From: Patescibacteria group bacterium
GTDB lineage: Bacteria > Patescibacteriota > WWE3 > UBA101185 > UBA10185
Assembly (NCBI GenBank): GCA_026004595.1
Contig: BPJL01000002.1
Location: 1,431 to 65,430, forward strand
Length of the DNA stretch: 64,000 nt
Reading direction: 5' to 3'
Part shown: piece by piece, positions 92 through 59,574 of the stretch
Layout: each line of letters starts with the position of its first letter
Position numbering within the stretch: position 1 is the first letter of the stretch
Translations under genes and position numbers: made by a program
Notes under the pieces: generated by a model
What the model saw: the letters and a program-made list of their open reading frames with translations, nothing else
Database searches by the model: none
What the model was told of the DNA's origin: nothing

Positions 92-206
92 TTTGTAGAA
101 TTATTATACACGAAGTTAGGGGTCGGTTTTTGGCTGGGGTTAGTAAAAGAACCGATTTATTGGTAAAATTTGTGGCGTAATTGTGAAGGAAGGTGAAGGA
201 AGCCGC

Positions 207-281
207 GGCCCCATCGTCTAGCGGTTAGGACAGTGGATTCTCATTCCACTAACCGGGGTTCGAGTCCCCGTGGGGTCACCA
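207..281 (+). tRNA. tRNA-Glu, anticodon CTC
   Basis: Cloverleaf by hand. Acceptor GGCCCCA/TGGGGTC (7 bp, one G-T). D-arm GTCT..GGAC. Anticodon stem GTGGA/TCCAC with loop TTCTCAT (anticodon CTC). T-arm GGGG-TTCGAGT-CCCC. Discriminator A, then encoded CCA. Confidence 0.85.
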
Positions 282-6137: not shown

Positions 6138-6209
6138 ATGGACAAGACTCTAGGTTATTGTTGTAGTTATGGGAAATAATGGCGGTTGAGGGGTGATATA
6201 ATGCAGGGA

Positions 6210-14221: not shown

Positions 14222-15535
14222 ATGTACTCAATATATAATCTGTCTATGCAATTAACAGATTTTGAATCTCCTCAAGCGCAATCAGGACAAGACCATGGTG
14301 AACCGACGGCTATAAGAGGGCGTCCTATAAGAATGCCTAAGACGGCGCAGACCCCGCAGATAAATGATTCGATCGGCAGTACATCTTCTGACGGTTTAAA
14401 TAATATGACTACATCTAAGAAAAAGAAAAAATTCGGCTTTTTCCTCTCCATATTTCTAGGTTTTATTATTGCAGCAGCCATAGGCGGAGTTTATTGGTAC
14501 ATAAAAAGTAATGAAGGCCCTCTAACCCCTGTCACCCCTGTTGGTAAAGGAGAAACAAAACCACAAGTGACACAAATAATGAACCCCCTGACTGGAAAAA
14601 TGTTTGCAGAAAATGCCGCAAACTGGGTTGATGATAGACCTTTTGGTGTAATGATGAATAACCATGTTGATGCCAGGCCGCAGTCAGGCCTGATCTACGC
14701 CGATATTGTGTATGAAGTGGTTGCAGAGGGCGGAATAACAAGATTTTTAACTTTCTACTACTCCAACACACCGGAAATAATAGGACCGGTGCGCAGCACT
14801 CGAGAATACTACCTTGTTTTGGTCAAAGAGCTAGGAGACGCGATGATAATGCATGACGGCTACTCGCCGCAGGCCTTATATGCCATAGACAACTGGCCTG
14901 TAAGAAGCCTTTTTAGGGGTGGAGCTACACTGCCTTCCGTTTGCGATGGGTGTGTTTGGAGAGATCAATCAAGAAATGTAGCTTACGAGCATACCGAATA
15001 CACAAACGGAGTAAAACTTAGAGAACTCGGAGATAGATTGGGTTGGCAAGGCAAAACCACAGTCAGGCCTTGGCTTTTCAAGGACGACCCAAACAAATAT
15101 GTCTCCGCACCCGAAGCTAAAGAAATCACCATAGATTACTGGTACCACGGAGATTACACAGGTCACTTTAAGTATGATCCGGTGTCAAACAAATATTTAA
15201 GATACACCGGAGTTGACGCCCAAGACCAACCAATTCCACACCTAGATCGGGAAACCCAAGAACAAGTTGCAGTTACCAACCTGATAGTTCAGTTTGCAGT
15301 AGAGTCAACCATTCCCGATGATGATAAAAGCCGCCTTAAGTACGAACTTCTAGGGAGCGGGAAGGCTATAGTGTTTGTGGATGGAAAAGTAATTGACGCT
15401 ACCTGGTCAAAAGCCGACAGAGATGATCGCACGATTTTCTACGATACTTCCGGTAAAGAGATAGAATTCAACAGAGGAAACTTTTGGATCGGCATTGTGC
15501 CTGACCGCAATGTTGATCAGGTAGTGTATAAGTAA
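14222..15535 (+). CDS. DUF3048-family membrane-anchored protein (YerB-like)
   Basis: N-terminal TM (FGFFLSIFLGFIIAAAIGGVYWYI). DUF3048-like core ADIVYEVVAEGGITRFLTFY. Confidence 0.65.
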   Translation: MYSIYNLSMQLTDFESPQAQSGQDHGEPTAIRGRPIRMPKTAQTPQINDSIGSTSSDGLNNMTTSKKKKKFGFFLSIFLGFIIAAAIGGVYWYIKSNEGPLTPVTPVGKGETKPQVTQIMNPLTGKMFAENAANWVDDRPFGVMMNNHVDARPQSGLIYADIVYEVVAEGGITRFLTFYYSNTPEIIGPVRSTREYYLVLVKELGDAMIMHDGYSPQALYAIDNWPVRSLFRGGATLPSVCDGCVWRDQSRNVAYEHTEYTNGVKLRELGDRLGWQGKTTVRPWLFKDDPNKYVSAPEAKEITIDYWYHGDYTGHFKYDPVSNKYLRYTGVDAQDQPIPHLDRETQEQVAVTNLIVQFAVESTIPDDDKSRLKYELLGSGKAIVFVDGKVIDATWSKADRDDRTIFYDTSGKEIEFNRGNFWIGIVPDRNVDQVVYK

Positions 15536-16234: not shown

Positions 16235-16252
16235 CAGATATAATCTCAAGGT

Positions 16253-17635
16253 ATGTTTAAGGATATTCGCATCCGTTTGGCATTAATTGGAACGCTTACT
16301 CTACTTTCATTGTTGATTGTGTTGCCCAAAATCCCTGTAAAAATGGATAACGCCTTCGCTCGGTTTGAGACAACCGTTGGGGGATACAATATCAGTTTAT
16401 TTAATGGCAAGTTCAAAAAGGATCTTAGCTCATTTAGAAAAGGTTTGGATTTAAGCGGTGGAATAAGAATAGTTCTTGAAGCAGATGTTTCAAAAATTGA
16501 ATCGGGCGACAAAGACGCCGCCCTTGAATCAGCAAAAGAAGTTATTTCACGTAGGGTTAATCTTTTGGGAGTTACCGAACCTTATGTAGCCACAACCAAA
16601 AGCGGAGACCAATACCGAATACTAGTTGAAATTCCCGGTCTGGATAATGTTACCGAAGCCGTCAAACTGATCGGCCAGACAGCCCAGTTAATCTTTATGG
16701 AAGTAAAGCCTGGTGTTGAATGGAGCCAAGACAAGATGTATGACTTTTATACCAACCTTGGTATGTGGCAGGATACAGAGGTAACCGGAGCTGACCTGAA
16801 AGGAGCAGATGTAGTAGTCAATCAGCAAACAAACATACAAAATCAAGGACCTCAAATCCGCCTAAAATTTACAAACGAAGGACGGGAAAAATTTTCGGAG
16901 CTGGCTAAAAGAAATGTGGGAAAACCTATCGGCCTGTTCTTAGATGACAGCCCGTATCCTTTATCTATGCCGATCGTGAGCGAAGACTTGGCCGGAGGCC
17001 TTACTGACGACCCCGTGATCAGCGGAAATTTTGATTTTGAAAGCGCTAAAAATTTGAGCATCCAAATCAGGGCGGGAGCTCTGCCCGTGCCTGTTAGAGT
17101 TTTGGAGCAGGAAACAATCGGCGCGACCTTGGGAACTGAATCGGTCCAAAAAAGTTTCTTTGCGGCGGGAGTCGGTCTTTTACTTGTCGTTGCATTCTTA
17201 ATTTTCAAATACGGAAAACTTGGTTTGTTTGCTGGAGGGGCTTTGTTTATTTATTCACTTCTTACGCTCGCCATATTTAAGATAGTTCCCGTCGTTTTAA
17301 CCCTCCCCGGTATTGCAGGTTTTATACTATCAATAGGAATGGCCACAGACGCCAACATACTTGTATTTGAAAGAGTAAAAGAAGAATTATTTTGGGGAAA
17401 GCCGAGCGATCTTGCTATTCATTTAGGTTTTGATAGAGCTTGGAATTCTATCAAAGACTCAAACATTTCTTCTCTCATCACTTCCTTTATTTTGTTCCAA
17501 TTTGGATCGGGCCCTGTAAAGGGGTTTGCCCTTACTCTGGCGATAGGAATTGCAGTGTCTCTGTTTACCTCAATATTTGTGGTGCGCACATTTATAGAAT
17601 GGTCACATGTGGGGAGGATAAAGAAAAATGGATAA
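16253..17635 (+). CDS. secD: Protein translocase subunit SecD
   Basis: 460 aa. Periplasmic domain plus C-terminal 6-TM block. Followed by secF with a 8-nt overlap. TATAAT at 16239-16244, 8 nt upstream of the ATG. Confidence 0.9.
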   Translation: MFKDIRIRLALIGTLTLLSLLIVLPKIPVKMDNAFARFETTVGGYNISLFNGKFKKDLSSFRKGLDLSGGIRIVLEADVSKIESGDKDAALESAKEVISRRVNLLGVTEPYVATTKSGDQYRILVEIPGLDNVTEAVKLIGQTAQLIFMEVKPGVEWSQDKMYDFYTNLGMWQDTEVTGADLKGADVVVNQQTNIQNQGPQIRLKFTNEGREKFSELAKRNVGKPIGLFLDDSPYPLSMPIVSEDLAGGLTDDPVISGNFDFESAKNLSIQIRAGALPVPVRVLEQETIGATLGTESVQKSFFAAGVGLLLVVAFLIFKYGKLGLFAGGALFIYSLLTLAIFKIVPVVLTLPGIAGFILSIGMATDANILVFERVKEELFWGKPSDLAIHLGFDRAWNSIKDSNISSLITSFILFQFGSGPVKGFALTLAIGIAVSLFTSIFVVRTFIEWSHVGRIKKNG

Positions 17636-22468: not shown

Positions 22469-23671
22469 TTATTGGGTTACGGGAGTCGCTGGAGCATTTT
22501 GAGGAGCGATCGGTTTTACATATTGGCCGCTTATCGCAGGAAGATATATTGTTATTTCTCCGCCCTGCGAACCGAGAGATTTGTATTTACCATCAAAAAC
22601 ATATATTGGTTGAAGATACAACTGCTTTTCATCCGGGTTTTCGTAGTATGCCAAGTATATATTGTCAACCAAAATCTCTGAAACTACAGGTGTATCTTGT
22701 TTGTCAAAAACGCTCGAACCTGCCGGAACTACGCTTGTAATGACTCCTTTTCCGTTTTTGACAGCATTCCATGCGGTTGAGACATCAATGATTGGGTACG
22801 AGGCGTTGGTTTTTGTTTCTATCTCCCTGTAGTAGGCGCTTATTTTGGGGTATGTAAGAACCAGAGTCTTTTCATTTTTGGGTGAAGTTACAAAAGTGTT
22901 AAGAAGACCGATTTTTGGGTCTGGTCCCAGCACAATGTAATCATTTAACTTTCTGTATAAATCAACACGGGCAAAAACAGTATCCCTTTGTGCATTTGTT
23001 TGGTAGAGCTTGGTGCCGCCTACGTATCCGTAGGTGACTTTTTGAACGCCCTCTTTGTATAATTCATCAATTCTGTCCAATTTTGAAAATAACGATACAG
23101 CGCTATTAATAACACCCTTGTCGTCAAGTTTACCTGTGTATAATCGGGCCGAGTTTCTTACTATGTCCGAGTCGGCGAATATTCTTCTGGTGTTTATATC
23201 AATTTCTAGATAACTGTTTGTGTCGGTTCTTCTCCATTTGTAAACTGTTCCTTTTAGATCCGAAATAAGATGTTGATTTTCATAGCCTATTAACTCCGCA
23301 TCTTTCATAGCATTGTCGCCGGCAAGATAGGAGAAAGCTCGGGGCTTAAACTTGTAAACGTTCATTTTATAGGGGATGCTGCCGGGAAGTCTGCCGTTTT
23401 TAGTGTTTAGTTTGTAAACTTGGTCACCTGTGACCTCCTTGGCCACAAACTCAAGTGGGTCTAAGTTTCCATAAATTGGGTTAGGGGGTTCTTTAGTTTG
23501 GTATATTATTTTTACTAAAGTTTTAAGCCCAGGTCCCCCGAAAAACATCCACCCGTAGTAAACACCAAGAACCAACATGCTGATTTTTATGAAACGTCTG
23601 AAGAGAATGGCAGTTTTGGTTAAATTCATCTCTAATATATTATAACAATATTTTGTGTGATAGAATCCCAA
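22469..23671 (-). CDS. Hypothetical membrane-anchored extracytoplasmic protein (start possibly at internal Met 23629)
   Basis: 400-aa ORF with a single N-terminal TM (LVLGVYYGWMFFGG); no recognisable family. Confidence 0.4.
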   Translation of the reverse strand: MGFYHTKYCYNILEMNLTKTAILFRRFIKISMLVLGVYYGWMFFGGPGLKTLVKIIYQTKEPPNPIYGNLDPLEFVAKEVTGDQVYKLNTKNGRLPGSIPYKMNVYKFKPRAFSYLAGDNAMKDAELIGYENQHLISDLKGTVYKWRRTDTNSYLEIDINTRRIFADSDIVRNSARLYTGKLDDKGVINSAVSLFSKLDRIDELYKEGVQKVTYGYVGGTKLYQTNAQRDTVFARVDLYRKLNDYIVLGPDPKIGLLNTFVTSPKNEKTLVLTYPKISAYYREIETKTNASYPIIDVSTAWNAVKNGKGVITSVVPAGSSVFDKQDTPVVSEILVDNIYLAYYENPDEKQLYLQPIYVFDGKYKSLGSQGGEITIYLPAISGQYVKPIAPQNAPATPVTQ

Positions 23672-23673
23672 GT

Positions 23674-25125
23674 ATGGAAGTAAGAACTAGAATGGCTCCC
23701 AGCCCGACCGGAGAATACCATGTTGGGCATATCCGCACCCTGATGTACAACTACGCTTTTGCCCGAAAAAACAACGGTAAATTCATATTGAGAATAGAAG
23801 ATACCGATCGTGAGAGATACGTTCCCGGCGCGGTAGAAAGAATTCAAGATGTTATAAAAATGATGGGTTTTGAATGGGACGAAGGTCCGGGAGTAGGAGG
23901 CGAGTACGGACCCTATGTGCAGTCTGAACGATTGGATATATATAAAAAGTATGCAGAGGAACTAATTGCGAAGGGCTATGCTTACTACTGTTTTTGCACA
24001 GAAGAAAGATTGGAGAAACTTAGGGAAAAACAGAAAGAGCATGGGGTCAGCAAGTACGATAGGCATTGTCTTAAATTAAAAAAAGATGAAATTGAAAAAA
24101 ATTTGAAAGCTAATGTTCCCCGTGTGATAAGAATGAAAGTACCCGACCATGAAGATGTATCTTTTGATGATTTGATACTTAGGAGAATCACTATAAATTC
24201 CGATGCTGTTGACGATCAGGTTCTGATCAAAGCAGACGGGTATCCTACATATCACATGGCTGTTGTTGTTGATGACCACCTTATGAAAATCACTCATGTT
24301 ATGCGTGGCAATGATTGGGTCCCCTCAACTCCCAAGCACATACTTCTATATAAATTCTTCGGATGGGAGCCCCCTAAATATGCCCATCTGCCGAACCTTA
24401 AAGAAGTGGGTGGAACGAAGAAGTTATCAAAAAGGTTTGGCTCGGTGTCTGTTTATGAGTTTTTGAGCGAGGGATACTTGCCTGAGGCGTTGAACAACTT
24501 TTTAATGTTTCTCGGGTGGAACCCCGGAACAGATAAAGAAATCTATACATTAGAAGAATTCATTAGAGACTTTTCAATTGAAAGAATCCAGCCGACCGAT
24601 CTTGTTGCATTTGACAGGCAGAAATTATTGTGGATGAACGGGCTGTATATCAGGAACACGGCAAACGCAGATTTGTGGAAGAAACTTAACGCATGGTCAG
24701 AGAAGTTTGATTTTTACTTGCATGGAAAAAACGCCGAAAAAGAGAAAGTGTTTGCAGTATTGGACTTAATAAAAGATAGAATGAAATTGCTTAGCGAGTA
24801 TAACAGCCTGGCGCATTACTTTTTTGAAGATCCGGAGATAGAAAAGGACGGGTTATATTCTTATGTTTCAGATGAAGAAAGAGGCAGGGAAATCCTTGAA
24901 GGTTTTAAGAATATTTATTCGGGTGTAAAAGATTGGAGCACGCCGGTTATAGATAAAATTTCCCATGATTTTATTTCTAAGAGAAACTACAAACCTAAAG
25001 AAGCATTTATGACTTTGAGAATAGCAATGACAGGAGAAACCGCCACTCCCCAGATTTTTGATATCTTGGGTATTTTAGGGAGAGAGACAGTGCTGAAAAG
25101 GCTAGGTTCAGCCCTTAATGTCTAG
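23674..25125 (+). CDS. gltX: Glutamyl-tRNA synthetase
   Basis: HIGH motif (PSPTGEYHVGH) and KMSKS (KLSKRFGS). Start set at MEVRTRMAPSPTG, 7 nt after the extended -10 TGATAGAAT (23658-23666). Confidence 0.9.
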   Translation: MEVRTRMAPSPTGEYHVGHIRTLMYNYAFARKNNGKFILRIEDTDRERYVPGAVERIQDVIKMMGFEWDEGPGVGGEYGPYVQSERLDIYKKYAEELIAKGYAYYCFCTEERLEKLREKQKEHGVSKYDRHCLKLKKDEIEKNLKANVPRVIRMKVPDHEDVSFDDLILRRITINSDAVDDQVLIKADGYPTYHMAVVVDDHLMKITHVMRGNDWVPSTPKHILLYKFFGWEPPKYAHLPNLKEVGGTKKLSKRFGSVSVYEFLSEGYLPEALNNFLMFLGWNPGTDKEIYTLEEFIRDFSIERIQPTDLVAFDRQKLLWMNGLYIRNTANADLWKKLNAWSEKFDFYLHGKNAEKEKVFAVLDLIKDRMKLLSEYNSLAHYFFEDPEIEKDGLYSYVSDEERGREILEGFKNIYSGVKDWSTPVIDKISHDFISKRNYKPKEAFMTLRIAMTGETATPQIFDILGILGRETVLKRLGSALNV

Positions 25126-25144: not shown

Positions 25145-25172
25145 TTGAATTAGACCTGTCCGCTGATAGAAT
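25145..25172 (+). promoter_or_regulatory. Sigma-70 promoter TTGAAT-N16-TGaTAGAAT upstream of recA
   Basis: TTGAAT at 25145-25150, extended -10 TGATAGAAT at 25164-25172. GGAGG RBS before the GTG start. Confidence 0.45.
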
Positions 25173-25229
25173 GAGTTTAGTAAATTATCATTGCCGAACT
25201 GCCCCGAGCAAATTTTTTGGAGGTAACCT

Positions 25230-26333
25230 GTGGTGAAAGAACATAAAGACAGCAAGCAAATAGATTCTGCCAAAAAGGGTAAGGATATTGCCTTGCAGAC
25301 AGCAATAGATCAGATTGAAAAAAATTACGGAAAAGGGTCAATTATGAGGTTGGGAGGAAGCGGCGGAGAGAGAGTTGTCCCGGTAATTCCCACCGGATCC
25401 ATTGCTTTAGATATAGCATTGGGTGTCGGCGGTGTTCCTAGAGGAAGAATAGTTGAAATTTATGGGCCAGAAGCTTCGGGAAAAACAACTTTGGTACAGC
25501 ACATAATCGCCGAAGCTCAAAAAATGGGCGGGACGGCTGCGCTTATAGACGCAGAACATGCTTTTGACCCCACATACGCTGAAAAAACCGGAGTAGATGT
25601 TGAGAATTTGTTAGTTTCACAGCCCGATACCGGTGAGCAGGCTTTGGAAATAGCCGAAACGCTAATAAGATCAAACGCGGTTGATGTAGTGGCAATCGAC
25701 TCCGTCGCCGCCTTGGTTCCGAGAGCCGAAATAGAAGGTGACATAGGTGATAGTTTTGTAGCTGTCCAGGCGAGGTTAATGAGCCAAGCATTAAGAAGAC
25801 TGACGGGAGCGATCAGTAGGTCAAATTGCACGATAATATTTACCAACCAGCTAAGGATGAAAATAGGCGTGATGTTTGGAAACCCCGAAACTACTCCCGG
25901 AGGAAAAGCCCTAAAATATTATGCCTCTGTAAGAATTGAGGTAAGAAAGGCAGAAGCTCTGAAAAGTGGGCAGGACATCAGCGGAATAAGAGTTCTCGCT
26001 AAAGTTGTTAAGAATAAAGTTGCCCCTCCATTCAGAAAAGCCGAGTTTGATATTTTATTTAATGAGGGAATAAGCAAAGAGGCTAACATTTTAGATGTTG
26101 GTGTGGATCTTGGAGTCATTAAAAAATTCGGAACTTGGTACGAGGCTGATGGCGAGAAGCTTGGGCAGGGAAAAGAAGCAGCAAGAATTTATCTTAAATC
26201 CAATCATAAGCTTAGGGACGAATTGGCTAAGAAAATAATGGATAAGGTGAAGCAGAGCAAGGAAATACCGCTTGAGCTGGGTACTGCTGGAGACGAGGTT
26301 GCTTTTTCAATGCCCGGAGAAGAAGCTGATTAA
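25230..26333 (+). CDS. recA: Recombinase RecA
   Basis: Walker [11 protein letters not shown]; RecA loops and overall length match. Confidence 0.92.
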
Positions 26334-29950: not shown

Positions 29951-29983
29951 CTTAAGTGGAAAGACTTTAGTTACGTCTAGAGA

Positions 29984-30016: not shown

Positions 30017-30179
30017 GTTTACAATGTTTTGTTTACAGAAGATAAAAGACAAGCATTGTTTTTAGTGGACGGTTTGAAGAAGTGGTGCTTTTTATTAATA
30101 CAGCATTTTAAGAAGAAATTTTTGACGAATCTATATTGTATTTAACGATCTCTGTATTTAGGTGCTAAAATATCCAAGT

Positions 30180-31106
30180 ATGACAAATGGAAAAGACTAC
30201 TACAAAATCCTAGGTATAGATAAAAATGCTTCGGAGGAAGATATAAAAAAGGCATACAGAAAACTTGCTAGGGAGCACCACCCTGATGTTGTATCTGAAA
30301 AAGATAAAGAAGCCGCAGAGAAGCGCTTTAAAGAGATAAACGAGGCTTATAGGGTGCTAAGCGATCCCGAGAAACGCAAGATGTATGATAAGTTCGGTAC
30401 AGCCGAACCAGGAAAAGGATTCGGAGGTTTTGGGGAAGGTTTCGGGAGGAGCGGCCAGTGGGGACCCTTTACTTATACCTATACTACAAACGGAGGAGCC
30501 GATTTCGGAGATTTTGACCCATTTGACATTTTTGAAAGTATGTTTGGTTTTCGCGGATTTGGGCAACGCACCCCCAAAAGAGGTAAGAACCTGTATTACC
30601 AAATGGATATAACCTTTAGAGAAGCTGTTTTCGGTGTTGAAAAGGACATAAATATTGAAAGCGGGAGAGTAAGAATAAAGATACCGGCGGGTGCGCGAGA
30701 TGGCTTGGAGCTTAAATTCGCTGGGAAAGGTATGCCGGGACCTGGCGGCGCCCCTGCTGGAGATTTGTTTTTAACACTTAGAGTTTCCTACCCTCAAGAA
30801 TTCAGGGTTTCGGGAGATGACGTGCTTGTTTTGGCTGATGTGGACATTGTTACCGCCGCTTTAGGCGGGGTAATTGAAGTACCTGTTGTTGATTTGAGCA
30901 GACCTGATGCTATAGGTAAGGCAAAGTTGAGAATCCCGGCGGGAACACAACATGGTACGAGGTTTGCCGTAAGGGGAAAAGGTATGCCAAGGTTGCATGG
31001 AAGGGGCCAGGGCGATGTTTTAGTGCAGGTAAATGTGGTTGTACCTAGGAGACTGAATAAGAAACAGAAGGATCTGCTGGAAGCCTTCGGGGCGGCTCGA
31101 GAATAA
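30180..31106 (+). CDS. DnaJ-domain co-chaperone lacking the Zn-finger (CbpA-like)
   Basis: J-domain with HPD (DYYKILGI...HHPDV), G/F-rich linker, C-terminal substrate-binding domains, no CxxCxGxG repeats. Start at ATG 30180, 8 nt after TGCTAAAAT (30163-30171). The track ORF begins at a GTG inside the -10. Confidence 0.75.
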   Translation: MTNGKDYYKILGIDKNASEEDIKKAYRKLAREHHPDVVSEKDKEAAEKRFKEINEAYRVLSDPEKRKMYDKFGTAEPGKGFGGFGEGFGRSGQWGPFTYTYTTNGGADFGDFDPFDIFESMFGFRGFGQRTPKRGKNLYYQMDITFREAVFGVEKDINIESGRVRIKIPAGARDGLELKFAGKGMPGPGGAPAGDLFLTLRVSYPQEFRVSGDDVLVLADVDIVTAALGGVIEVPVVDLSRPDAIGKAKLRIPAGTQHGTRFAVRGKGMPRLHGRGQGDVLVQVNVVVPRRLNKKQKDLLEAFGAARE

Positions 31107-34677: not shown

Positions 34678-34733
34678 AACACTAAGAAAAGCTTGATTTT
34701 TAAGGGTTTTTTTGATACCATTCATTGTTGGTT

Positions 34734-37263: not shown

Positions 37264-37299
37264 CACCTTTTTGCCGCGAGAGCTGATATAATTTACTTG

Positions 37300-38217
37300 A
37301 TGCTGAAAACCTGCCCTCAGTGTGGAAGAAATCTAACAAAAGCTGATAACTACTTTTGCCATGTTTGTGGAGCAGTTACAGGTGGAGGTGCGGCAAGATC
37401 TAATAAACGTTACTATTTGGGTTCCAAAACTTCTTTAAAAGATGGTGTTTCTTTTAGTTTATCGCCTTGGGGGTTTTTGGCAGGTGTTTGTGTTTTTATT
37501 TTATTGGTGGGTTCAGCTATTCTCTCATCTCGCATAGCCAGCAAGGCCGCGGATAGGGGAAGTTTAGTTATTTCAAACATGTTTTCTTCAAATAATTCTC
37601 CTGCCCCCCAACAGGTAAGTAAAAATGAAAAATCTTCGGTTCCGGACAGCTTCTCGCTCGCTTCTGACATTGAGAACTTTGTTCCATTTCAGACGGATTT
37701 TGTAGTCGTATTTTATTCCCATTTAGATTTTTTGGACGCTCTTAAATTTTTTAAGGTAGAAAATACGTTTGATGTGGATTTTCTCAAAAATCTAAACCGC
37801 CCTCCCTATGTGATAATTCTAACCCCGCCGGCGGGGGAAAATGAGGAGTTGAGAACAGCATTGCTGCTGTTTCCTGTTGAGAAACCGGCCGAGGGTGATT
37901 ATTCCAGATATGTTGATAAGGAATTTTCAGAAACAATTTTAGATAAAGCTGTTGTTTTGGCGAATGATCCTGGTGTTGCTGAAGAAATTACCCAAGTATC
38001 CAAAGGACTCCACAAGGGAATAGGGCTTAATTCATACTATATGAATATAAGACGTAAAATTCCGGAAAATGTGAGGTCAAAGATTTTTGTCTTTTCTAAT
38101 ATTGGTGTAGGATATGTTAACCAGCTTGATACCGACAAGATGCCGGAATCAGTAAAAATGCTGGTTATAAATTATATGAAATCCGGCAGTTATTACGGAT
38201 TTGTAGAATATGAATGA
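37300..38217 (+). CDS. Hypothetical membrane protein with an N-terminal zinc ribbon (CPQCG...CHVCG) and one TM
   Basis: ATG 37300 lies 7 nt after TGATATAAT (37284-37292). Overlaps the downstream Lon-like ATPase gene by 8 nt. Confidence 0.5.
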   Translation: MLKTCPQCGRNLTKADNYFCHVCGAVTGGGAARSNKRYYLGSKTSLKDGVSFSLSPWGFLAGVCVFILLVGSAILSSRIASKAADRGSLVISNMFSSNNSPAPQQVSKNEKSSVPDSFSLASDIENFVPFQTDFVVVFYSHLDFLDALKFFKVENTFDVDFLKNLNRPPYVIILTPPAGENEELRTALLLFPVEKPAEGDYSRYVDKEFSETILDKAVVLANDPGVAEEITQVSKGLHKGIGLNSYYMNIRRKIPENVRSKIFVFSNIGVGYVNQLDTDKMPESVKMLVINYMKSGSYYGFVEYE

Positions 38218-39283
38218 CGCGGCAGATAAAAAAGATTTTTTGTTCGATGAGCTTCGAACTCTAACCCAGAAGGTTAACGAAACCGAGGGAATCCCCGAGA
38301 TTTTAGCCGACCGCTTGAAGCAGATGATTCAGAGGCTTGATAGGATGGCGAACCTTGGCCACTACGCCACGGAGTACGATACATTGGCGAGGTACATCGG
38401 GATAGTTACATCAATTCCTTGGGTAAAGAAAACAGAGGACAGGATGGATTTACAGATAACAAAGCAGATTCTGGATGAGCATCACTACGGTATGGAGTAT
38501 GTAAAAGAGAGAATATTGGAGTATATGTCCACATTGATTTTGTTAAAGAAGAGAGGCAAAGAGGTACTACAAAGGGCGCCCATTTTGCTTCTTGTAGGGT
38601 TGCAGGGAGTTGGAAAGACAACTCTTGCTATGTCAATTGCCGAGGCTCTCCAGAGGAAATTTGTACGAATAGCTATGGGAGGGATCGGTTCAACATTAGA
38701 GATAAGAGGCAGGAGCAAGGCATTCCCTGAGTCGGAACCTGGGCTAATTATAAAAGCACTCATAAACGCCGGGGTAAAGAATCCTGTGATACTTCTTGAT
38801 GAAATTGAAAAGGCCAGTGGAGAGGCCGGTCTGCAGTCAGACATTATGGCAGTTCTATTGGAGATACTTGACCCCGCTCAAAATGTTGCCTTCAGGGACC
38901 ACTATATTGATTTTCCTGTTGATTTATCCGAAGTGATGTTCATTTGTTCCGCGAATAATCTTGGTCCCATATCAACCGCCCTTTTAGATAGGATGGAGGT
39001 AATTAAAATGCCTTCTTACAGCGATGCGGAAAAAATGGTAATTGCGCGTGATTACATACTCCCAAAGGTTATAGAAAATTCGGGTCTCAAGCCTGAGGAG
39101 TTAATAATTGACCCCAACTTGTGGCCAGGAATAATTAGGCCGTTTGGTTATGATTCGGGCATAAGAAGCTTAACCAGAACTTTAGAGTCAATATGTAGAA
39201 AGGTGGCAAGGGAAATTGTGGAGGGCAAAGTTGATAAAGTTTACCTCACTGCCGATAACCTAAAACACTATCTCCCAAAATAG
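38210..39283 (+). CDS. Lon-like AAA+ ATPase module lacking both the Lon N-terminal substrate domain and the S16 protease domain
   Basis: Aligns to the Lon helical-linker plus AAA+ region: SIPWVKKTEDRMDLQITKQILDEHHYGMEYVKERILEY, Walker A GLQGVGKTTL, Walker B ILLDEIEK. Ends where the Lon protease domain would begin. Confidence 0.7.
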   Translation: MNDAADKKDFLFDELRTLTQKVNETEGIPEILADRLKQMIQRLDRMANLGHYATEYDTLARYIGIVTSIPWVKKTEDRMDLQITKQILDEHHYGMEYVKERILEYMSTLILLKKRGKEVLQRAPILLLVGLQGVGKTTLAMSIAEALQRKFVRIAMGGIGSTLEIRGRSKAFPESEPGLIIKALINAGVKNPVILLDEIEKASGEAGLQSDIMAVLLEILDPAQNVAFRDHYIDFPVDLSEVMFICSANNLGPISTALLDRMEVIKMPSYSDAEKMVIARDYILPKVIENSGLKPEELIIDPNLWPGIIRPFGYDSGIRSLTRTLESICRKVAREIVEGKVDKVYLTADNLKHYLPK

Positions 39284-39284
39284 T

Positions 39285-39914: not shown

Positions 39915-39923
39915 ACTTATTAT

Positions 39924-41648: not shown

Positions 41649-41719
41649 TTTGCTTGATACAGGCCGTTGTTTTCTTTATCTCAAATTAAATTGGCTTTGC
41701 TAGTGATATAATTTAGCCA

Positions 41720-43957
41720 ATGCCGCGTGGGAGAAGAAGAAAATTTCGGATACATTTCAACGTAAGGCCTGAAACTATAAGGTCGGTATTAGCGCTTCTG
41801 TTGGTCAGCTTAGGCCTTTTAAGTTTAATAGCATTTTTTACCCCGTCTTATTCTTTCAATTCAAAGGTTGTGGGGTTTCTTACACGTTTGTTTGGCAAGC
41901 CCTCTATATTAGTGCCTTTTCTTCTTGTAATAGCGGGGTTACTGTTTATCCAAAGGCTCCAGCTTAAGATAAAAGAGCCTAGAATCGCCATCGGGCTTAT
42001 CTTAGCTTTGTTATCGTTGTCGGGGTTGTTTCACTTGTTTATAGAGAGTGATGAGGCTTTGGGGGCTGCAGAAAAAGGTTTGGGAGGAGGTTTCGTAGGC
42101 TACAAAATAAGCAATGTGCTGATTTCGAGCGTCAGTATTTATGGAGCGGTTGTAGTGCTTTTTCTTGCGGTTGTGGTGTCGGCTATTCTTCTATTTGATA
42201 TTTCCTTGGATCAAATCCTGGGCTTTGTTTCTGAAAAAGGAGCTCCTCTGAAGGATTTTATAAAGAGAACATGGCCGTTTAAAAAGGAGGCAGTTGAGGA
42301 ATTTGGTGAATTTGAAAGCGAGTACAAGGAGGGTGAAGAAGTTAGCGAGCCTGCCCCCGAGAAAGAAGTTGAGGAAGAAGAACCGGAATTTGAAGTCATA
42401 CCAACCCAGTATGAACCCCAAAAAGCTCCTGTTGTTCTCTCAGAGGATGTGACTTCTTCTATTGCTCCTGTGTCCCCGACAGGGTTTTTATCCGCTCCTC
42501 CGAACAAAATATGGGTTGAACCTCCTTTGGATTTGCTTAATGAGCCCGTTCCCGAAACCAGGGATTTAACAGAATCCAAAGCCAATGAAAAGAAAATTAT
42601 AGAAACTTTGAAATCTTTCGGAATTGAAGCTGAAATAGCAAGCACAAAAGTCGGTCCATCAGTTACACGATATGCTTTAAGACCCAAGTCCGTTACTAAA
42701 GTTTCGAAAATAGCTTCGTTACACGAAAACTTGGCATTAGCTCTAGCGTCTCCCACCGGTTCGGTGAGAGTTGAAGCTCCAATACCCGGTACTTCAGAGA
42801 TTGGAGTAGAAGTGCCGAATTCAAACAGAACCCTTGTTTACTTTAAGTCAATAATTACGTCAGAGGCTATGAAAGCCATGAAATCAAAACTGGCGATAGG
42901 TTTAGGGAAGGACGTTGCGGGTAAGACTTATGTCTACGATATTGCCAAAATGCCTCATTTGCTCATAGCCGGCTCAACAAACTCTGGAAAATCAATTTTC
43001 ATCCACAATATATTATTCTCCATTCTTTTCCGCGCATCTCCGCAGGAAGTTAAATTTGTGCTTGTTGATCCCAAGAGAAATGAACTGACTCACTATCAGG
43101 ATATTCCCCATCTCATAACTCCTGTTGTTGTGGATATGGACAGAGCTCATTCAGTATTTATGTGGGCGGTTAAGGAAATGGAAAGGCGGCTAAGATTGTT
43201 TGAGCAGGCCAAGGTAAGAAATATTGATTATTACAATGAAAACTCAGGTTTTCAGGCCCTTCCTTACATCGTGATAATTGTAGATGAGTTTGCGGAGGTT
43301 ATGCTTCAAAATACCAATGAGGTGGAAAAGGCGGTTGTACGTCTTGCGCAAATGGCAAGATCAACAGGTATTCATTTGGTTCTTGCGGTTCAGCGGCCCT
43401 CAATCAACATAATCACGGGTATCATCAAGGCCAATATACCGACTCGTGTGGCATTTAGCGTTTCTAGCCAGATCGATTCAAGGGTTATTATTGATCAGCC
43501 CGGCGCGGAGAAACTTCTGACAAAGGGAGATATGCTTTTTGTGCCGCCCGACGCCCAAAAGCCCATACGTTTACAGGGTGCTTACATAGATGAAAAAGAA
43601 ATAGCGCGTCTTGTTAATTATCTTAAGAGTCAGGGAATAGAGCCGGATTATTCAGAAGAAGTTTTGGCAAATGTCATGGAGAAGGATGGAAAGGTGGGTT
43701 CAAGCGCTTGGGGTGAGGGCGTGGACCCGTTGTTTGATGAGGCTGTGGAAATAGTAAGTTCAATGGGGAAGGCGTCGGCGTCACTGCTCCAAAGAAAGCT
43801 TTCTATAGGTTTTTCAAGGGCAGCAAGAATAATTGATGAAATGGAAGAGAAGGGGATAGTAGGACCGGCTGTTGGGGGAAGCAGGGCAAGAGAGCTTTTG
43901 ATAGGAGGAGGTGGGCACAGTGGATATGTAGATGAGATTGACGATCTAGTTTCTTAG
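41720..43957 (+). CDS. ftsK: DNA translocase FtsK/SpoIIIE
   Basis: N-terminal 4-TM block, P/E-rich linker, FtsK motor domain (GSTNSGKS Walker A, VIIVDEFAE Walker B), C-terminal gamma wHTH. ATG lies 7 nt after TGATATAAT (41704-41712). Confidence 0.9.
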   Translation: MPRGRRRKFRIHFNVRPETIRSVLALLLVSLGLLSLIAFFTPSYSFNSKVVGFLTRLFGKPSILVPFLLVIAGLLFIQRLQLKIKEPRIAIGLILALLSLSGLFHLFIESDEALGAAEKGLGGGFVGYKISNVLISSVSIYGAVVVLFLAVVVSAILLFDISLDQILGFVSEKGAPLKDFIKRTWPFKKEAVEEFGEFESEYKEGEEVSEPAPEKEVEEEEPEFEVIPTQYEPQKAPVVLSEDVTSSIAPVSPTGFLSAPPNKIWVEPPLDLLNEPVPETRDLTESKANEKKIIETLKSFGIEAEIASTKVGPSVTRYALRPKSVTKVSKIASLHENLALALASPTGSVRVEAPIPGTSEIGVEVPNSNRTLVYFKSIITSEAMKAMKSKLAIGLGKDVAGKTYVYDIAKMPHLLIAGSTNSGKSIFIHNILFSILFRASPQEVKFVLVDPKRNELTHYQDIPHLITPVVVDMDRAHSVFMWAVKEMERRLRLFEQAKVRNIDYYNENSGFQALPYIVIIVDEFAEVMLQNTNEVEKAVVRLAQMARSTGIHLVLAVQRPSINIITGIIKANIPTRVAFSVSSQIDSRVIIDQPGAEKLLTKGDMLFVPPDAQKPIRLQGAYIDEKEIARLVNYLKSQGIEPDYSEEVLANVMEKDGKVGSSAWGEGVDPLFDEAVEIVSSMGKASASLLQRKLSIGFSRAARIIDEMEEKGIVGPAVGGSRARELLIGGGGHSGYVDEIDDLVS

Positions 43958-43980
43958 CAATTTTGGTAGAATAGCAAGGT

Positions 43981-44256
43981 ATGGGAAGTAAAAAAAGATC
44001 CAAACAAAAAAGAATAGAAAGGCGCCTTGTGGAAATTGTACGCGCCCAGAATTCGGCTCAGGGTCATGCAGTAGGAATCACACAAAATTTGCAAAAAGAA
44101 AACGAAACTAAAATCTCTGATTCTAAGGGTATTTTTCATGAACTTCCGATGACAGAAATGAAGAAAGATATGATTAAGAACGCGGCCTATCTGGCTTTCG
44201 CCGTCGCTTTGATTTTAGTCATAGAAATATCGGGTTTGTATTATAAGTTGTTTTAG
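43981..44256 (+). CDS. Small hypothetical protein with a C-terminal TM
   Basis: 91-aa ORF; basic N-terminus; helix AAYLAFAVALILVIEISGLYY. Confidence 0.3.
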   Translation: MGSKKRSKQKRIERRLVEIVRAQNSAQGHAVGITQNLQKENETKISDSKGIFHELPMTEMKKDMIKNAAYLAFAVALILVIEISGLYYKLF

Positions 44257-45264
44257 TTAGGAGCGGATTTCAGCGTCTATAAATTCATCCAATCCTCCGT
44301 CGAGGATGTAGTCAGGGTCCGAAGATTCGACTCCGGTTCTCAGATCTTTTACTAGTTTATAGGGATGTAAAACGTAGTTTCTAATTTGATTCCCCCATCC
44401 GGGCATCTTATATTCTCCCTTTGCTTTCTTTTTTTCTTCCTCGATTTTTTCCTCTTCCATTTTGTACAGCTTTGATCTTAATATTTTCAGCGCTTTCTCT
44501 CTGTTTTTTCCTTGGAACCTTTCTTCTTGGCATTCAACAATAATTCCGGTGGGTTTGTGCTTAAGACGCACGGCAGTCGAAACCTTATTTACATTTTGTC
44601 CTCCGCTGCCGCCGGATCTGAAAAAATCCCATTCAAGATCTTCATCTTTTATCTCAATATCTCCCAAATCATCATTTATCAATGGAATGACCTCTACTAG
44701 GGCGAATGAAGTTTGGCGGAGGTTATCAGCATTGAAGGGGGATTGCCTTACCAATCGATGAACGCCTGATTCACGTTTTAAAAATCCATAGGCGTATGGA
44801 CCTGATATTTCCAGAGTTGCTGTCTTTATCCCCGCTTCCTCACCGGGGGTCATACTTACTTCATGCCATTCCCATCCGGTCTTTTCTGCGTATCTTTTAT
44901 ACATTCTCAAAAGCATGGCTGCCCAATCCATGGCTTCCGTTCCTCCCTGGCCGGCGTGTATTGTTACAATTGCGTCGTTTCGGTCGTGTTTATCCTTGAA
45001 AAAGGTTTTTAATTCAAGACGGTGTAGTTCTCGTTCAAAATTTTCTTTGTCCCCTTCCTCTGCCATAAGCTCAAGCATCTCATAATCTTCTATGTCTTTT
45101 TTTAACGCCGCCAGATCTTTTGCTACCCCGGTGCCTTCCTCCCAGTTTTTCCATGTAGATTCATCAACGACTCTTTCCTCAAGAGCTTTTATTTTGGCCC
45201 TTTTTTCTTCAATAAAAAGCCCTTCTTTAAGTTGTTTAAGCCGTTCTCTCAATGTTTCTTCCAT
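44257..45264 (-). CDS. prfB: Peptide chain release factor 2 (no programmed +1 frameshift)
   Basis: SPF tripeptide (QSPFNADN) and GGQ ([12 protein letters not shown]). Single uninterrupted 335-aa ORF. Confidence 0.88.
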
Positions 45265-45289
45265 AGCTATGAGATTATACCACCGGTTG

Positions 45290-48909: not shown

Positions 48910-49593
48910 TTATTCACCCCCTTTCAACAAATTTTGGGCACGCATGCTTGAGAAAGATTTGTCGCATACTATTAGGTGATCGATAAGGTTTATGCCGACA
49001 ATTTGGCAGGCTTCTTGAACTCTTTTAGTAATTTTCACATCTTCTGTGCTGGGGTTAGGCTCTCCAGACGGATGGTTATGGGCAAGAATGATAGATACGG
49101 CATTATCCATTATTGCCGTTCTTATAATTTCACGCGGGTGTATGAGGGTCTCGTTTATTGTGCCCGCGGACACCAAGCTTTTTTTGATAGTGATGTTTCT
49201 TGAATTTAGGGATATTAAATACAAGTGTTCAGTTTCTTTTCCAAAGAAATTGGGTTTGACGTATTCATAGGCGTCATTTGGTCCTGACACTTTTACACTT
49301 TGTCTTGGAGGGTTGTTATACCTATTGATAAGCTCTTTTATAGCCGAGAGTCTTGCGGCCTTAACCTTTCCAAGATATTTGTTTCTTATCAATTTTTGGA
49401 CAGGGGTATTTAAAAGGGTATAAAGAGATCCACTTTCCCTAATTATTTTTTGTGAGAGTTCCAGTACCGAGCTGCCTTTGCCGCCGCTTGATAGGATTAT
49501 GGCTGTAAGTTCGGCGTCAGACAGTATATCGGCACCTTTGTTAAGCAGTTTTTCTATTGGTCTGTCTTCTTCTGGAAGTAAAGACATTTTCAT
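48910..49593 (-). CDS. radC: RadC-like JAB/MPN domain protein
   Basis: HhH-like N-terminal part and JAMM motif ILAHNHPSGEPNPSTED; its stop overlaps the start of the TasA-like gene. Confidence 0.8.
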   Translation of the reverse strand: MKMSLLPEEDRPIEKLLNKGADILSDAELTAIILSSGGKGSSVLELSQKIIRESGSLYTLLNTPVQKLIRNKYLGKVKAARLSAIKELINRYNNPPRQSVKVSGPNDAYEYVKPNFFGKETEHLYLISLNSRNITIKKSLVSAGTINETLIHPREIIRTAIMDNAVSIILAHNHPSGEPNPSTEDVKITKRVQEACQIVGINLIDHLIVCDKSFSSMRAQNLLKGGE

Positions 49594-49655
49594 AAAGCAT
49601 AATCTAGGTTATTGCAATTTACATTACAATATGTTAAATTCTAATCCTACCAGCT

Positions 49656-53780: not shown

Positions 53781-53999
53781 TTATTTAAGCCTATAAATGA
53801 TCCTTCCTCTTGTAAGGTCGTGGGGAGAGAATTCTATTCTGACTCTGTCCCCAGGCAAAACCCTAATGTGGGCTTTCCTCATTTTACCCGAAACTACGGC
53901 TAAAGCTGTAGTTTCGTCGTCAAACTCAACCGTGAACATCCCTCCCATATGAGTTTCAGTTATTTTTCCGTCTTTTGTTACTACCTCTTTTGTACTCAT
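53781..53999 (-). CDS. infA: Translation initiation factor IF-1
   Basis: 72 aa, S1-like OB fold, [16 protein letters not shown]. Confidence 0.9.
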
Positions 54000-54063
54000 T
54001 TAGCTTTTAGTCTTAACGAACGCGCTTGATTGTAGCAGAAGCTTCAATATCGGTCAATAATAC

Positions 54064-55455: not shown

Positions 55456-55481
55456 AAAATAATTTGATAGTATGGCTTAAT

Positions 55482-56171
55482 ATGAATATCTTTGACGGGA
55501 TCCAGCTTCCTAAGATTATCTACGAGGCAGAATCAAAATATAACGGCAAAATTGAGGTATGGGAGGTCGGTAAAACCCGAAAAATAAAGGTTGAAAAGAT
55601 TGATCAGTCAATCTCTCACAAATCTTCCTCGGCAAACAGGTTGGTGTGGGGCAAGGTTGTAGAAATTTTGGAGGAAAATGCTCCCGATTTGCAGAAAGTT
55701 TTAATATTGGGTTTGGGTGGGGGTACGATGGCTCACATAATCTCAGAAAGATTTAATCATCCCGAAATTGTGAGTGTGGAAATTGATCCTGTTATGATAG
55801 ATATAGCGAGAAAATTTTTTGATTTAGATTCGATACCAAACCATAGGGTTATAGAGGCAGATGCTTTAAGAGTAACTATCGAACCCGAAGATTATGACCT
55901 CGAAGAAGAATATTTCAATGTTGTGATTGTTGATATATTTAATGGTGAGAAATATCCCGATTTGGGAAAGTCGGGAAACTTTATCGCTTCAGTTAAAAGG
56001 TTGGTGAGGCCGGGAGGCCTTTTAATTTTTAACCGAATTTATTTAGACCATCATCAAGATGATGTGAATATATTTATAGAATACCTTGGGGATTTTTTAC
56101 ATAATGTTACATGTCTGGTTGTTGCGGGGTATACAAATTCTGACAACGTTCTCATCTACGGGAAAGTTTGA
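55482..56171 (+). CDS. Spermidine-synthase-like / class I SAM-dependent methyltransferase-fold protein
   Basis: VLILGLGGGTMAHII...EIDPVMIDIARKFF...IVDIF pattern. ATG 55482 lies 8 nt after TGATAGTAT; the track ORF begins at TTG 55464. Confidence 0.55.
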   Translation: MNIFDGIQLPKIIYEAESKYNGKIEVWEVGKTRKIKVEKIDQSISHKSSSANRLVWGKVVEILEENAPDLQKVLILGLGGGTMAHIISERFNHPEIVSVEIDPVMIDIARKFFDLDSIPNHRVIEADALRVTIEPEDYDLEEEYFNVVIVDIFNGEKYPDLGKSGNFIASVKRLVRPGGLLIFNRIYLDHHQDDVNIFIEYLGDFLHNVTCLVVAGYTNSDNVLIYGKV

Positions 56172-56983: not shown

Positions 56984-57023
56984 GAAAAACTGTACAGCTT
57001 TCGGTGCTATAATCAACTTCGAT

Positions 57024-59574
57024 ATGTTTAAGTTTTTCGGCGATCCTAACGAGAAACAACTGAATAGGATTAGACCCATTGTTGCGGAGATCAATTCCTT
57101 GGAGGATTCTGTCCAAAAACTTTCTCAAGAAAAGATGAGAGAGAGAGTATTGGAGTGGAAGGCACAGCTTAGAGGTCTTGATTATGAAGAGCAAGAAAAG
57201 CTGATGAGAAAAAATCCTTCCCGAGGCCTTTGCCTTTGTCCGTGAGGCATCGGTTAGAACATTGGAAAAGAGGCACTTTGATGTGCAGTTAATGGCAGGT
57301 GTCGTTTTTACACGAGGGAAAAATTTCGGAACAGAAAACTGGAGAAGGAAAAACTTTGACCGCGACCCTACCTCTTTTTCTAAACTCCTTGACTGGGCGC
57401 GGGGTTCATTTGGTAACTCCCAATGATTATCTTGCACGCCACGGTGCTGGTTGGATGGGACCTATTTATGACTACCTTGATATAAGTGTTGGAGTAATTA
57501 TGCAAGAGAGGGCGTTTGTGTATGATAGTACATTCAAAGGAACTGAGTTTGAAGATATTTATGCTATTCATTTGAAAGAGGTTTCAAGGCAGGAAGCTTA
57601 TAAATGCGATGTTGTTTACGGAACTAATCATGAATTTTGGGTTTGACTACCTTCGGGATAACATGGTGTACAACCTTGAAGCTATGGTGCAGACAAATCC
57701 AAATGGAGAGTTTGGGGTTCATAATTTTGCGATAGTTGATGAAGTTGACTCTATATTAATAGATGTTGCTAGAACCCCCCCTTATTATTTCTTCTGCTGA
57801 TGCTAAACCATCTTCACGGTATTATGATGCTGATCGCATTGTTAAAACTCTCGCCAAGGGTATTGACTACGAAGTTGAAGAAAAATTCAGAAACGTCACT
57901 TTAACAGATTTAGGAATAAGACGAGTTGAGAGGCTTTTGGGGGTTGAGAATCTATACGAACAGGATTTTGAAATGGTCCATTTGATAGAAGAGGCTCTCA
58001 CAGCTCATGCTTTATATGAAAAAGATAGAGATTATGTGGTGAAAGACGGAAAGGTAATTATAGTTGATCAATTCACAGGAAGACTTCTGCCAAACAACAG
58101 GTTTTCCCACGGATTACACCAGGCTATTGAGGCAAAAGAAGGTGTAGAGATTCAACAAGAATCCAAAACTTTAGCTGAAATTTCCTATCAAAATTATTTT
58201 AGAATGTACAAGAAACTGGCGGGCATGACAGGTACGGCAGCTACCGAAGCTGAAGAGTTTTACAAAATCTATAAGCTGGAGGTTGTAGTTATCCCAACCA
58301 ACAAGCCGAATATAAGAAAAGATCATAACGATGTGATTTACAAAACGGAAAGCGCGAAGTTTAAGGCTGTAGCTGATGATATTGCTGAGAGGCATGCTAG
58401 GGGCCAGCCAGTTCTTGTTGGAACAACTTCTGTGGAGAAAAGTGAACAATTGCACGCACTGTTGGTAAGAAGGAAGATACCCCACGAAGTATTAAATGCA
58501 AAAAACCACGAAAAGGAAGCTTTGATAATAGCTCAAGCAGGGAGAAAAGGTGCTGTGACAATTTCAACAAACATGGCTGGACGAGGGGTCGATATTGTTT
58601 TGGGTGGAGATCCTCCAGACGAAGAGCAGCAGAAAGAAGTGTTGGAAAAAGGCGGATTGTATGTTATAGGCACCGAACGCCACGAGTCGAGGAGAATAGA
58701 TAATCAGTTGAGAGGTCGGGCAGGAAGGCAGGGGGATCCTGGCGAAACCAGATTTTATGTCTCATTGCAGGACGATCTAATGAGAGTTTTCGGTGGCGAA
58801 CAGGTGAGCAGGCTGATGGATCGCTTTGGTATCGATGAGACTATTCCACTTGAGGCCGGACTTGTTACCAGATCAATTGAAAGTGCCCAGAAAAAAGTTG
58901 AAGGCTTTAACTTTGACAGAAGGAAAAATGTTGTGGAAATGGACGACGTTATTAACGTTCATCGCGAGGTTATTTACAAACTGAGAAGAAGAATTTTGGA
59001 ATTAGGAGCGGGGATCACGACCAATAAAGAATGGATAATTGGCAAATTATCTTCAATGTCAGTATTGAGCTCGGAGTTGTGGGAGCAAAAAGAAAGAGAA
59101 TTTGGGGAGGAAACTTGGTATAAGATCGTTTCGGATTGGAGCCTTAGGGTGATAGATAATTTCTGGATGGATCACCTGGTTGATATGGATCAAGTTCGGG
59201 AAGGAATAGGTTTAAGGGGCTATGCTCAGAGAGATCCAATGGTTGAATACAAAAAGGAAGGGCACGAGAGATTTGAAATTTTGTTGGCAAGAATTTATTC
59301 AACAATAGGTGAGCGCCTTGAAAAGGCAACGACAGATTCTGTAGTAAGAGTATCTCCTTCAGAGAGCCAGCTTTTGGCCAGAGCAAACTACCTTCACGGT
59401 GATTTTGAAAGCGGTGTCAGAGACGAGATGGGTCAGGCTTCTCCTCGTTTTGTTGATCCTTTGGGAAGAGTTGTTAAAGTTCAAGCTGTAACTTCCGGCA
59501 AAGAAAAAGTGGGAAGAAACGACCCGTGCCCATGTGGTAGCGGGAAGAAGTATAAGAATTGCCATGGAAGATAA
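57024..59574 (+). CDS. secA: Preprotein translocase ATPase SecA, interrupted by four +1 homopolymer frameshifts in its first ~760 nt
   Basis: Pieces at 57024, 57299, 57609 and 57763 align consecutively to SecA ([58 protein letters not shown]-terminal [14 protein letters not shown] zinc finger). Shifts lie in A6 (57209-14), T5 (57305-09), T4 (57635-38) and C7 (57775-81). TGCTATAAT sits 10 nt upstream of the ATG. Confidence 0.85.

Follow-up and report, generated by a model that had tools for sequence, protein, structure and literature searches.

Phage lambda cI mRNA transcribed from PRM and the other leaderless mRNAs of Escherichia coli begin with a 5'-terminal AUG, contain no Shine-Dalgarno (SD) site, and strictly require AUG as the start codon. 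Messages with leaders of at most 5 nt are operationally classed as leaderless as well. An arrangement known as the "-10 region adjacent to ORFs" was reportedly described in D. deserti by de Groot et al. in 2014. In Deinococcus-Thermus, this box lies directly before about 30% of open reading frames (ORFs) with no -35 element, functions as a promoter, and must stand at a defined spacing from the start codon (PMC12340547). The leaderless "group C" genomes are defined by a Pribnow box 6 to 8 nt from the start (PMC6028130). In Actinobacteria such as Mycobacterium and Streptomyces, the box precedes the starts of first-in-operon genes by 6 to 8 (up to 10) nt, these genes have no SD site whereas others do, and 25 to 50% of operons are affected (PMC6028130, PMC3160421). 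Extended -10 (TGn) promoters, known from E. coli and from Gram-positive bacteria, have a TG one base 5' of the hexamer that compensates for a missing -35 element. Here we describe a related architecture in a 64-kb stretch of the genome of a WWE3 (Katanobacteria) bacterium (contig BPJL01000002.1; hereafter, the window), in which a -10 box, usually of the extended form TGnTAnAAT, stands 6 to 10 nt upstream of the ATG of 13 genes.

These starts share the box position and missing SD site of group C genes, the -35-free box abutting the ORF of Deinococcus-Thermus, and the TG of extended -10 promoters. The host differs from the group C Actinobacteria in being a low-GC bacterium (42%) of the Candidate Phyla Radiation (CPR) with a reduced genome. 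The high-GC actinobacteria have a degenerate TANNNT, whereas the element found here, known from sequence alone, is the full E. coli-like extended TGnTAnAAT. Compared with Deinococcus-Thermus, the phylum is another one, and function, which was established experimentally there, is argued here by comparison. The extended -10 class is defined with no regard to how far away the start codon lies; in the window, the promoter appears fused to the ORF. Likewise, what is a rare exception among E. coli mRNAs would be a major mode of expression in this bacterium. We consider it quite probable that these extended -10, -35-independent promoters give rise to leaderless mRNAs, or to mRNAs with leaders of 1 to 4 nt, that are translated without SD pairing. 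The mechanism itself is already known, and the lineage is the new occurrence. Full-text searches returned no description of this architecture for WWE3, Katanobacteria, or CPR bacteria, and a survey of CPR ribosomes discussed loss of the anti-SD sequence only in some Parcubacteria (PMC9297842).

A first-pass annotation of the window had listed eight such starts, all on the positive strand, and every motif, spacer, and ATG was found exactly where it had been placed. The spacer is 7 nt long at pepF (6194..6212; TGATATAAT-N7-ATG 6210, NCBI product of 602 aa), gltX (23658..23676; TGATAGAAT-N7-ATG 23674), the gene for a 305-aa zinc-ribbon membrane protein (37284..37302; TGATATAAT-N7-ATG 37300, 36 nt past the pnp stop), and ftsK (41704..41722; TGATATAAT-N7-ATG 41720). 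It is 8 nt long at secD (16239..16255; TATAAT-N8-ATG 16253, 18 nt past the upstream gene), at a dnaJ-like gene (30163..30182; TGCTAAAAT-N8-ATG 30180, with the hup terminator at 29979-30011 lying upstream), and at the gene for a spermidine-synthase-like methyltransferase (55465..55484; TGATAGTAT-N8-ATG 55482, JGI product of 229 aa). The longest spacer is that of secA (57005..57026; TGCTATAAT-N10-ATG 57024).

Five further cases were added to that list. On the positive strand, they are the gene for a DUF3048 protein (14234..14248; TATAAT-N6-ATG 14246, with an in-frame ATG at 14222 upstream, within the promoter region) and a 91-aa basic ORF (43964..43983; TGGTAGAAT-N8-ATG 43981, 23 nt past the ftsK stop). 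The negative strand contributes a hypothetical gene, hyp386 (23627..23647; TGTTATAAT-N9-ATG 23629), the gene for a peptide chain release factor (RF; 45262..45282; TGGTATAAT-N9-ATG 45264), and radC (49591..49606; TAGATT-N7-ATG 49593). The -10 box of radC is weaker and lacks the TG, and its evidence comes from the window only.

A scan of all ORF starts placed the architecture at 13 of about 56 genes in the window (23%), or at about 36%, roughly one-third, of the transcription-unit-leading genes, taken as the approximately 36 genes that have a divergent neighbor or are separated by 18 nt or more from the gene upstream. The TG at -15/-14, one base 5' of the -10 hexamer, was present at 10 of the 13 sites. 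All 13 start with ATG, a preference not significantly above that of the rest of the window, where 38 of 43 genes also start with ATG. GGAGG, GGAG, and GAGG were absent from all 13 spacers. Some spacers contain AAGG, but only 1 to 2 nt separate it from the ATG, a distance too short for use as an SD site. Two weaker candidates, both on the negative strand, were left out of the 13: a clpB-like gene at 47857 (TGATATCCT-N6-ATG, 47858-47875) and a DUF4349 gene at 1782, preceded by a perfect TTGACA-17-GAAGAT-N6-ATG (1783-1820).

We compared motif counts in the window with those in dinucleotide-preserving shuffles. With TGNTANAAT denoting the extended -10 pattern TGnTAnAAT, the string TGNTANAAT-N7-ATG occurred four times (pepF at 6194, gltX at 23658, the zinc-ribbon gene at 37284, and ftsK at 41704) against 0.24 expected, and none of 100 shuffles reached four. 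When spacers of 6 to 10 nt were allowed, nine matches were found against 1.04 expected, a count that none of 200 shuffles attained. Each of the nine lies at the start of a real gene: pepF, hyp386, gltX, the dnaJ-like gene, the zinc-ribbon gene, ftsK, the 91-aa ORF, the RF gene, and secA. With a control spacer of 16 to 20 nt, there were no matches against 0.97 expected. Chance co-occurrence of AT-rich hexamers and start codons in AT-rich intergenic DNA might still be suspected, since the enrichment of TGNTANAAT by itself was only mild (20 occurrences, 12.5 expected) and the loose form TANAAT-N6..10-ATG, without the TG, was not significantly enriched in the window (22 against 16.4 expected). The nine matches of the extended form, every one of them at a real gene start, speak against that explanation.

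The spacing itself provided a measure independent of gene calls. Across 126 kb from four independent WWE3 genomes, the distances from TANAAT to an ATG that begins an ORF of 80 codons or more peaked sharply at 6 to 9 nt (11, 8, 4, and 3 cases, respectively), with about 1.3 cases in each of the other bins. For ATGs without a long ORF, the histogram from the same genomes was flat. No such peak was found in 232 kb of non-CPR loci, and none in about 38 kb of other CPR loci (Saccharibacteria-labelled L022, L007, and Paceibacterota L023 and L024), a sample too small for a conclusion. At three further WWE3 loci with third-party gene calls, a -10 box lay 6 to 9 nt before the called start in 6 or 7 of the 19 or 20 genes at each locus.

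Up to ten other WWE3 contigs were available for comparison, and their synteny with the window makes orthologous starts directly comparable. The PNPase gene (35143-37263) matched WWE3 metagenome-assembled genomes (MAGs) at 85 to 86% identity, with two further matches near 60%. The -10 box and the ATG are kept down to 50 to 60% protein identity at the zinc-ribbon gene, ftsK, the dnaJ-like gene, gltX, hyp386, and the DUF3048 gene; for secD, the 91-aa ORF, and the RF gene, conservation was seen in closer relatives only. Between genomes the sequence of the spacer varies, its length is kept within clades, and the -10 box is kept.

The zinc-ribbon gene is preceded by TGATATAAT-N7 in L001, TGTTATAAT-N7 in L002, L003, and L004, TGTATAAT-N8 in L005, and TGATAGAAT-N6 in L006. 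All six genomes compared for ftsK (the window, L001, L002, L004, L005, and L006) have a -10 box and a 7-nt spacer. The dnaJ-like gene has N8 in the window's clade and TGTTAAAAT with N6 or N7 in L005, L006, and L033 (N6 in L005 and L006). For gltX, six genomes (L026, L027, L028, L032, L033, and the window) show TGATAGAAT, TGTTAAAAT, or TGTTAGAAT with N6 or N7; the five relatives have TGTTA[A/G]AAT or TGATAGAAT, with N6 in L028 and L032. The hyp386 orthologs have N9, or N6 in L028. The DUF3048 gene has N6 in all relatives (TATAAT-N6-ATG in L028, L032, and L033), secD and the 91-aa ORF have N8, and the RF gene has N9. Nearly all orthologous starts are ATG; the exception is the divergent gene of L032, for which a GTG was called, following a weaker TAATAT box. 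Leadered genes, for their part, keep their SD sites across relatives (AAAGGGGGTG at hup, GGAGGT at rny, and GGAGG at recA).

The motif is thus retained in genomes whose flanking intergenic sequence has diverged. Together, the spacing, enrichment, and conservation results effectively refute chance co-occurrence, which we regard as extremely unlikely. As judged from these loci, the whole WWE3/Katanobacteria lineage shares the arrangement. One of the contigs, L005 (CAYOCN010000001.1), is labelled "uncultured Candidatus Saccharibacteria." It has its full gene order in common with the WWE3 window over 22 kb, and most of its mapped proteins are 55 to 83% identical to those of the window. The taxonomic label is probably wrong.

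The sites at hyp386 and gltX are the two halves of a bidirectional promoter. In the 44-bp divergent gap between these genes (23630-23673), two extended -10 boxes of opposite orientation, TGTTATAAT on the negative strand and TGATAGAAT on the positive strand, lie only 10 bp apart, and each directly precedes its own ATG. Polymerases at the pair are probably mutually exclusive. The pair, with a gap of 41 to 45 bp, was found in five of the six genomes compared (L026, L028, L032, L033, and the window). In the sixth, L027, the same sequence is present, and the annotated gap measures 155 bp as a result of both genes being called at downstream ATGs. More broadly, the entire Katanobacteria may constitute a leaderless lineage within the CPR that has so far gone undescribed, with about one-third of transcription units bearing an ATG-fused extended -10 element, conserved 41- to 45-bp bidirectional pairs, and gene-specific spacings of 6 to 10 nt kept within clades. 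We give this wider proposal slightly less than even credence.

The same motif also occurs at normal promoter distances. A -10 element, TGGTAAAAT, at 161-169 lies 37 nt upstream of tRNA-Glu (207-281; the unit spans 161..281 on the positive strand). At recA (25164..25232, positive strand), TGATAGAAT at 25164-25172 is followed by a leader of about 50 nt, GGAGG at 25219-25223, and a GTG start at 25230. At infA (53997..54057, negative strand), TTGACC-17-TGCTACAAT (54057..54029) lies 29 nt upstream of the ATG at 53999. These occurrences identify the motif as the housekeeping -10 element rather than a ribosome-binding site. When 36 WWE3 sites were aligned on the -10 box, the only upstream enrichment was that of the TG at -15/-14 (T in 24 and G in 18 of the 36). 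The -35 region showed no enrichment, and there was no information content at -40..-10 in these sites. A -35-requiring promoter scan of the window yielded 40 hits in total, not above the 32.6 in shuffles, and recovered only the dnaJ promoter among the 13; since the demand for a -35 element misses nearly all these promoters, the scan is uninformative. A conserved TTGACA/TTGATA upstream of the zinc-ribbon -10 box was considered as a -35 element and rejected: its spacer would be 20 to 21 nt, and it overlaps the pnp stop codon.

Alternatively, the TATAAT-like box could act on the RNA, as an AU-rich, unstructured, non-SD translation enhancer or standby site (e.g., S1-dependent) within polycistronic mRNAs initiated at more distant upstream positions, the situation in the non-SD "group B" genomes. 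Many of the genes in question lie 18 to 40 nt past a co-directional gene with no detectable terminator, the leadered genes infA, nusA, and pnp also lack an SD site, and a small sample of other CPR loci shows AT-rich gene starts without SD sites; all of this would fit an RNA element. The motif, however, is more than AU-rich: it is sequence specific and includes the TG of the extended -10 promoter. It also precedes a tRNA gene and an SD-led leader, and it occurs in both orientations in the 44-bp divergent region, where no upstream transcript could serve both genes. Absence before operon-internal genes is the feature by which GeneMarkS-2 separates promoters from non-SD ribosome-binding sites (PMC6028130). 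In the window, the motif was absent before the overlapping or adjacent operon-internal genes secF, recJ, aspS, recX, AAA, UDG, rnj, and the ribosomal-protein genes. We therefore regard an RNA element as unlikely.

SD sites were present at secF, recA, rny, rpoA, rpsI, and rpsD in the window. The first-pass annotation had assigned GGAGG sites to recA and hup, among others; recA indeed has GGAGG, but hup has AAAGGGGGTG instead. The leader of infA, about 22 nt long, has no recognizable SD site, and nusA and pnp also lack one in the window; these genes therefore form a third class of starts, leadered but SD-less. At rpsO (34690-34736, positive strand), a conserved promoter, TTGATT-17-TGATACCAT, is separated from the ATG by 12 nt in all WWE3 relatives examined. 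This spacing would imply a leader of about 5 nt without an SD site, between the leaderless and leadered classes.

We infer the position of the transcription start site (TSS) and the mode of translation from the geometry of these sites. Across 49 bacteria, TSSs are centered 7 bp after the -10 box, the canonical TSS being the 7th base after the hexamer, that is, with six intervening bases (PMC12641261). A 7-nt spacer puts the A of ATG at position 8. The first-pass annotation, in which a 7-nt spacer was taken to place the canonical start on that A, was thus off by one, but its estimate that the mRNAs begin within about 3 nt of the ATG holds for most spacers. Transcription from N7 promoters would start at the A only if RNA polymerase uses position 8, a shift that the known flexibility in TSS choice still allows.

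In the mechanism that we propose, housekeeping sigma-70-type extended -10 promoters (TGnTAnAAT, with a dispensable -35 element) would be followed by the start codon 6 to 10 nt after the hexamer. RNA polymerase would start at the A of ATG (N6-N7) or 1 to 4 nt upstream of it (N8-N10), and such an mRNA would leave no room for an SD site. Its 5'-terminal AUG would be recognized by the ribosome together with initiator tRNA through the leaderless pathway, and downstream genes of the operon would be translated via coupling or from their own SD sites. The zinc-ribbon promoter, for example, probably drives an operon of the zinc-ribbon, AAA ATPase, UDG, and RNase J genes (37300-41648). At secA, the 10-nt spacer likely leads to a leader of 3 to 4 nt.

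A variant of this scheme accepts the promoters as real but holds that the mRNAs carry short leaders (1 to 4 nt or more) and initiate in a 30S-dependent, SD-independent manner. It draws on the 8- to 10-nt spacers of 7 of the 13 genes, on the conserved 12-nt spacer of rpsO with its leader of about 5 nt, and on the canonical TSS position 7 bp after the box (PMC12641261). Most of the 8- to 10-nt spacers have a purine at position 7, which makes very short leaders (GU-AUG or GCU-AUG) plausible for the N8-N10 genes. On the other hand, distant WWE3 orthologs mostly have N6 or N7 (N6 for dnaJ in L005 and L006, gltX in L028 and L032, and hyp386 in L028), which would put the TSS on the A. As a separate explanation we judge this variant very unlikely; because leaders of at most 5 nt are classed as leaderless, it is a refinement of leaderless initiation rather than an alternative to it.

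The case for leaderless initiation is built from the positional enrichment, the conservation of box, spacer length, and ATG across WWE3, the registration of N termini and Pfam domains, and the absence of the motif before operon-internal genes. These results support the recurrent leaderless architecture proposed earlier, coexisting with SD-led genes. Several points weigh against it. The mRNA 5' ends are read from sequence, and the sample comprises the 64-kb window and about 250 kb of related loci. With a canonical TSS, the N8-N10 spacers (secD, the dnaJ-like gene, the 91-aa ORF, the RF gene, hyp386, and secA) would leave leaders of 1 to 4 nt. Several genes are located 18 to 40 nt past a co-directional gene with no terminator between them, and read-through transcripts in which the same AUG is internal probably also exist. 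The loose motif, as noted, was not significantly enriched.

The ATGs in question are real starts, as indicated by Pfam registration, the N termini of orthologs, and the NCBI and JGI gene calls. The comparison of N termini suggested by the first-pass annotation showed that orthologs align with the predicted proteins from residue 1. The N terminus of the zinc-ribbon protein is always M-x-(x)-x-C-P-x-C in the window and its relatives. FtsK begins with a basic stretch aligned from residue 1, MPRGR(R/K)(R/K)KF in the window, L001, L002, and L005, MPKRGRKRKF in L004, and MAKRGRKRKI in L006. Pfam domains begin at residue 2 in GltX (catalytic domain) and the RF (PCRF domain) and at residue 6 in the DnaJ-like protein (J-domain).

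NCBI annotation was available for the window itself (MAG KatS3mg101, 139-kb contig, window proteins GIW69455-GIW69479), and JGI calls were available for a near-identical 768-kb contig, L029 (Ga0246236_1000002). The NCBI calls use the leaderless ATGs of pepF, the DUF3048 gene (429 aa), secD, hyp386, the dnaJ-like gene, the zinc-ribbon gene (305 aa), and gltX. The JGI calls agree with the ATGs of ftsK, the 91-aa ORF, the RF gene, clpB, radC, the methyltransferase gene, and secA. In JGI, a PepF from the same cluster is 605 aa long, which fits an ATG at 6201 inside the -10 box, and the DUF3048 protein, at 437 aa, starts with the ATG at 14222, which precedes the box. Internal ATGs were called in L027, a WWE3 relative from a Logan assembly (9845-10040), giving a GltX of 479 aa and a divergent neighbor of 363 aa; the leaderless ATGs overlooked by the caller follow TGTTAAAAT-N7 and TGTTATAAT-N9. 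The earlier suspicion that automated start calls are probably wrong was therefore only partly borne out: NCBI calls the exact ATGs, but the JGI calls for pepF and the DUF3048 gene are extended, and gltX and its neighbor in L027 are truncated. Where errors are present, they run in both directions. For MAG annotation, the consequence is that WWE3 starts are miscalled by some pipelines, which affects the prediction of N-terminal signal peptides and domains.

The ribosome of CPR bacteria is reduced and lacks uL30 and bL9. If the architecture is confirmed, a CPR phylum with reduced ribosomes would join the short list of leaderless-reliant lineages (Actinobacteria and Deinococcus-Thermus). This bears on initiation by minimal ribosomes and on the idea of leaderless initiation as ancestral. 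Should the wider proposal for Katanobacteria be true, gene-specific conserved spacings would mean that TSS selection is unusual or that the reduced CPR ribosome efficiently translates messages with 1- to 4-nt leaders. The arrangement would also show how a 0.8-Mb genome can fit independent promoters into gaps of 18 to 44 bp.

Between 56.3 and 62.2 kb, the window differs from L029 by 31 single-base insertions, mostly repeats of the neighboring base. They split uppP (56181-56983) into two frames and secA (57024-59574) into three, and they also disrupt two further genes, encoding a TPR protein (532 aa) and a signal peptidase (182 aa). In L029, all four genes are intact, and SecA is 848 aa long. 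Pseudogenes and programmed frameshifts were considered for secA and uppP and rejected, as the comparison with L029 points to assembly or sequencing error. The promoter and start of secA are unaffected by the insertions. A TGTTACAAT at 61274 was itself created by one of them.

Two other features of the window were recorded. IF-2 (infB, 32469-33965, positive strand) is 498 aa long and lacks the long N-terminal region of E. coli IF-2; its length, 496 to 498 aa, is kept in the relatives in which the gene was called. A cyclic di-GMP (c-di-GMP)-II riboswitch was found at 8321-8405 on the positive strand, scoring 56.5 bits with Rfam model RF01786, for which the gathering score is 53.5. It lies 60 nt upstream of a 1,695-aa ORF (8465-13552), and the gene that comes next, for a sortase (13524-14207), overlaps this ORF. 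The arrangement suggests that a giant surface protein of this CPR bacterium is under c-di-GMP control.

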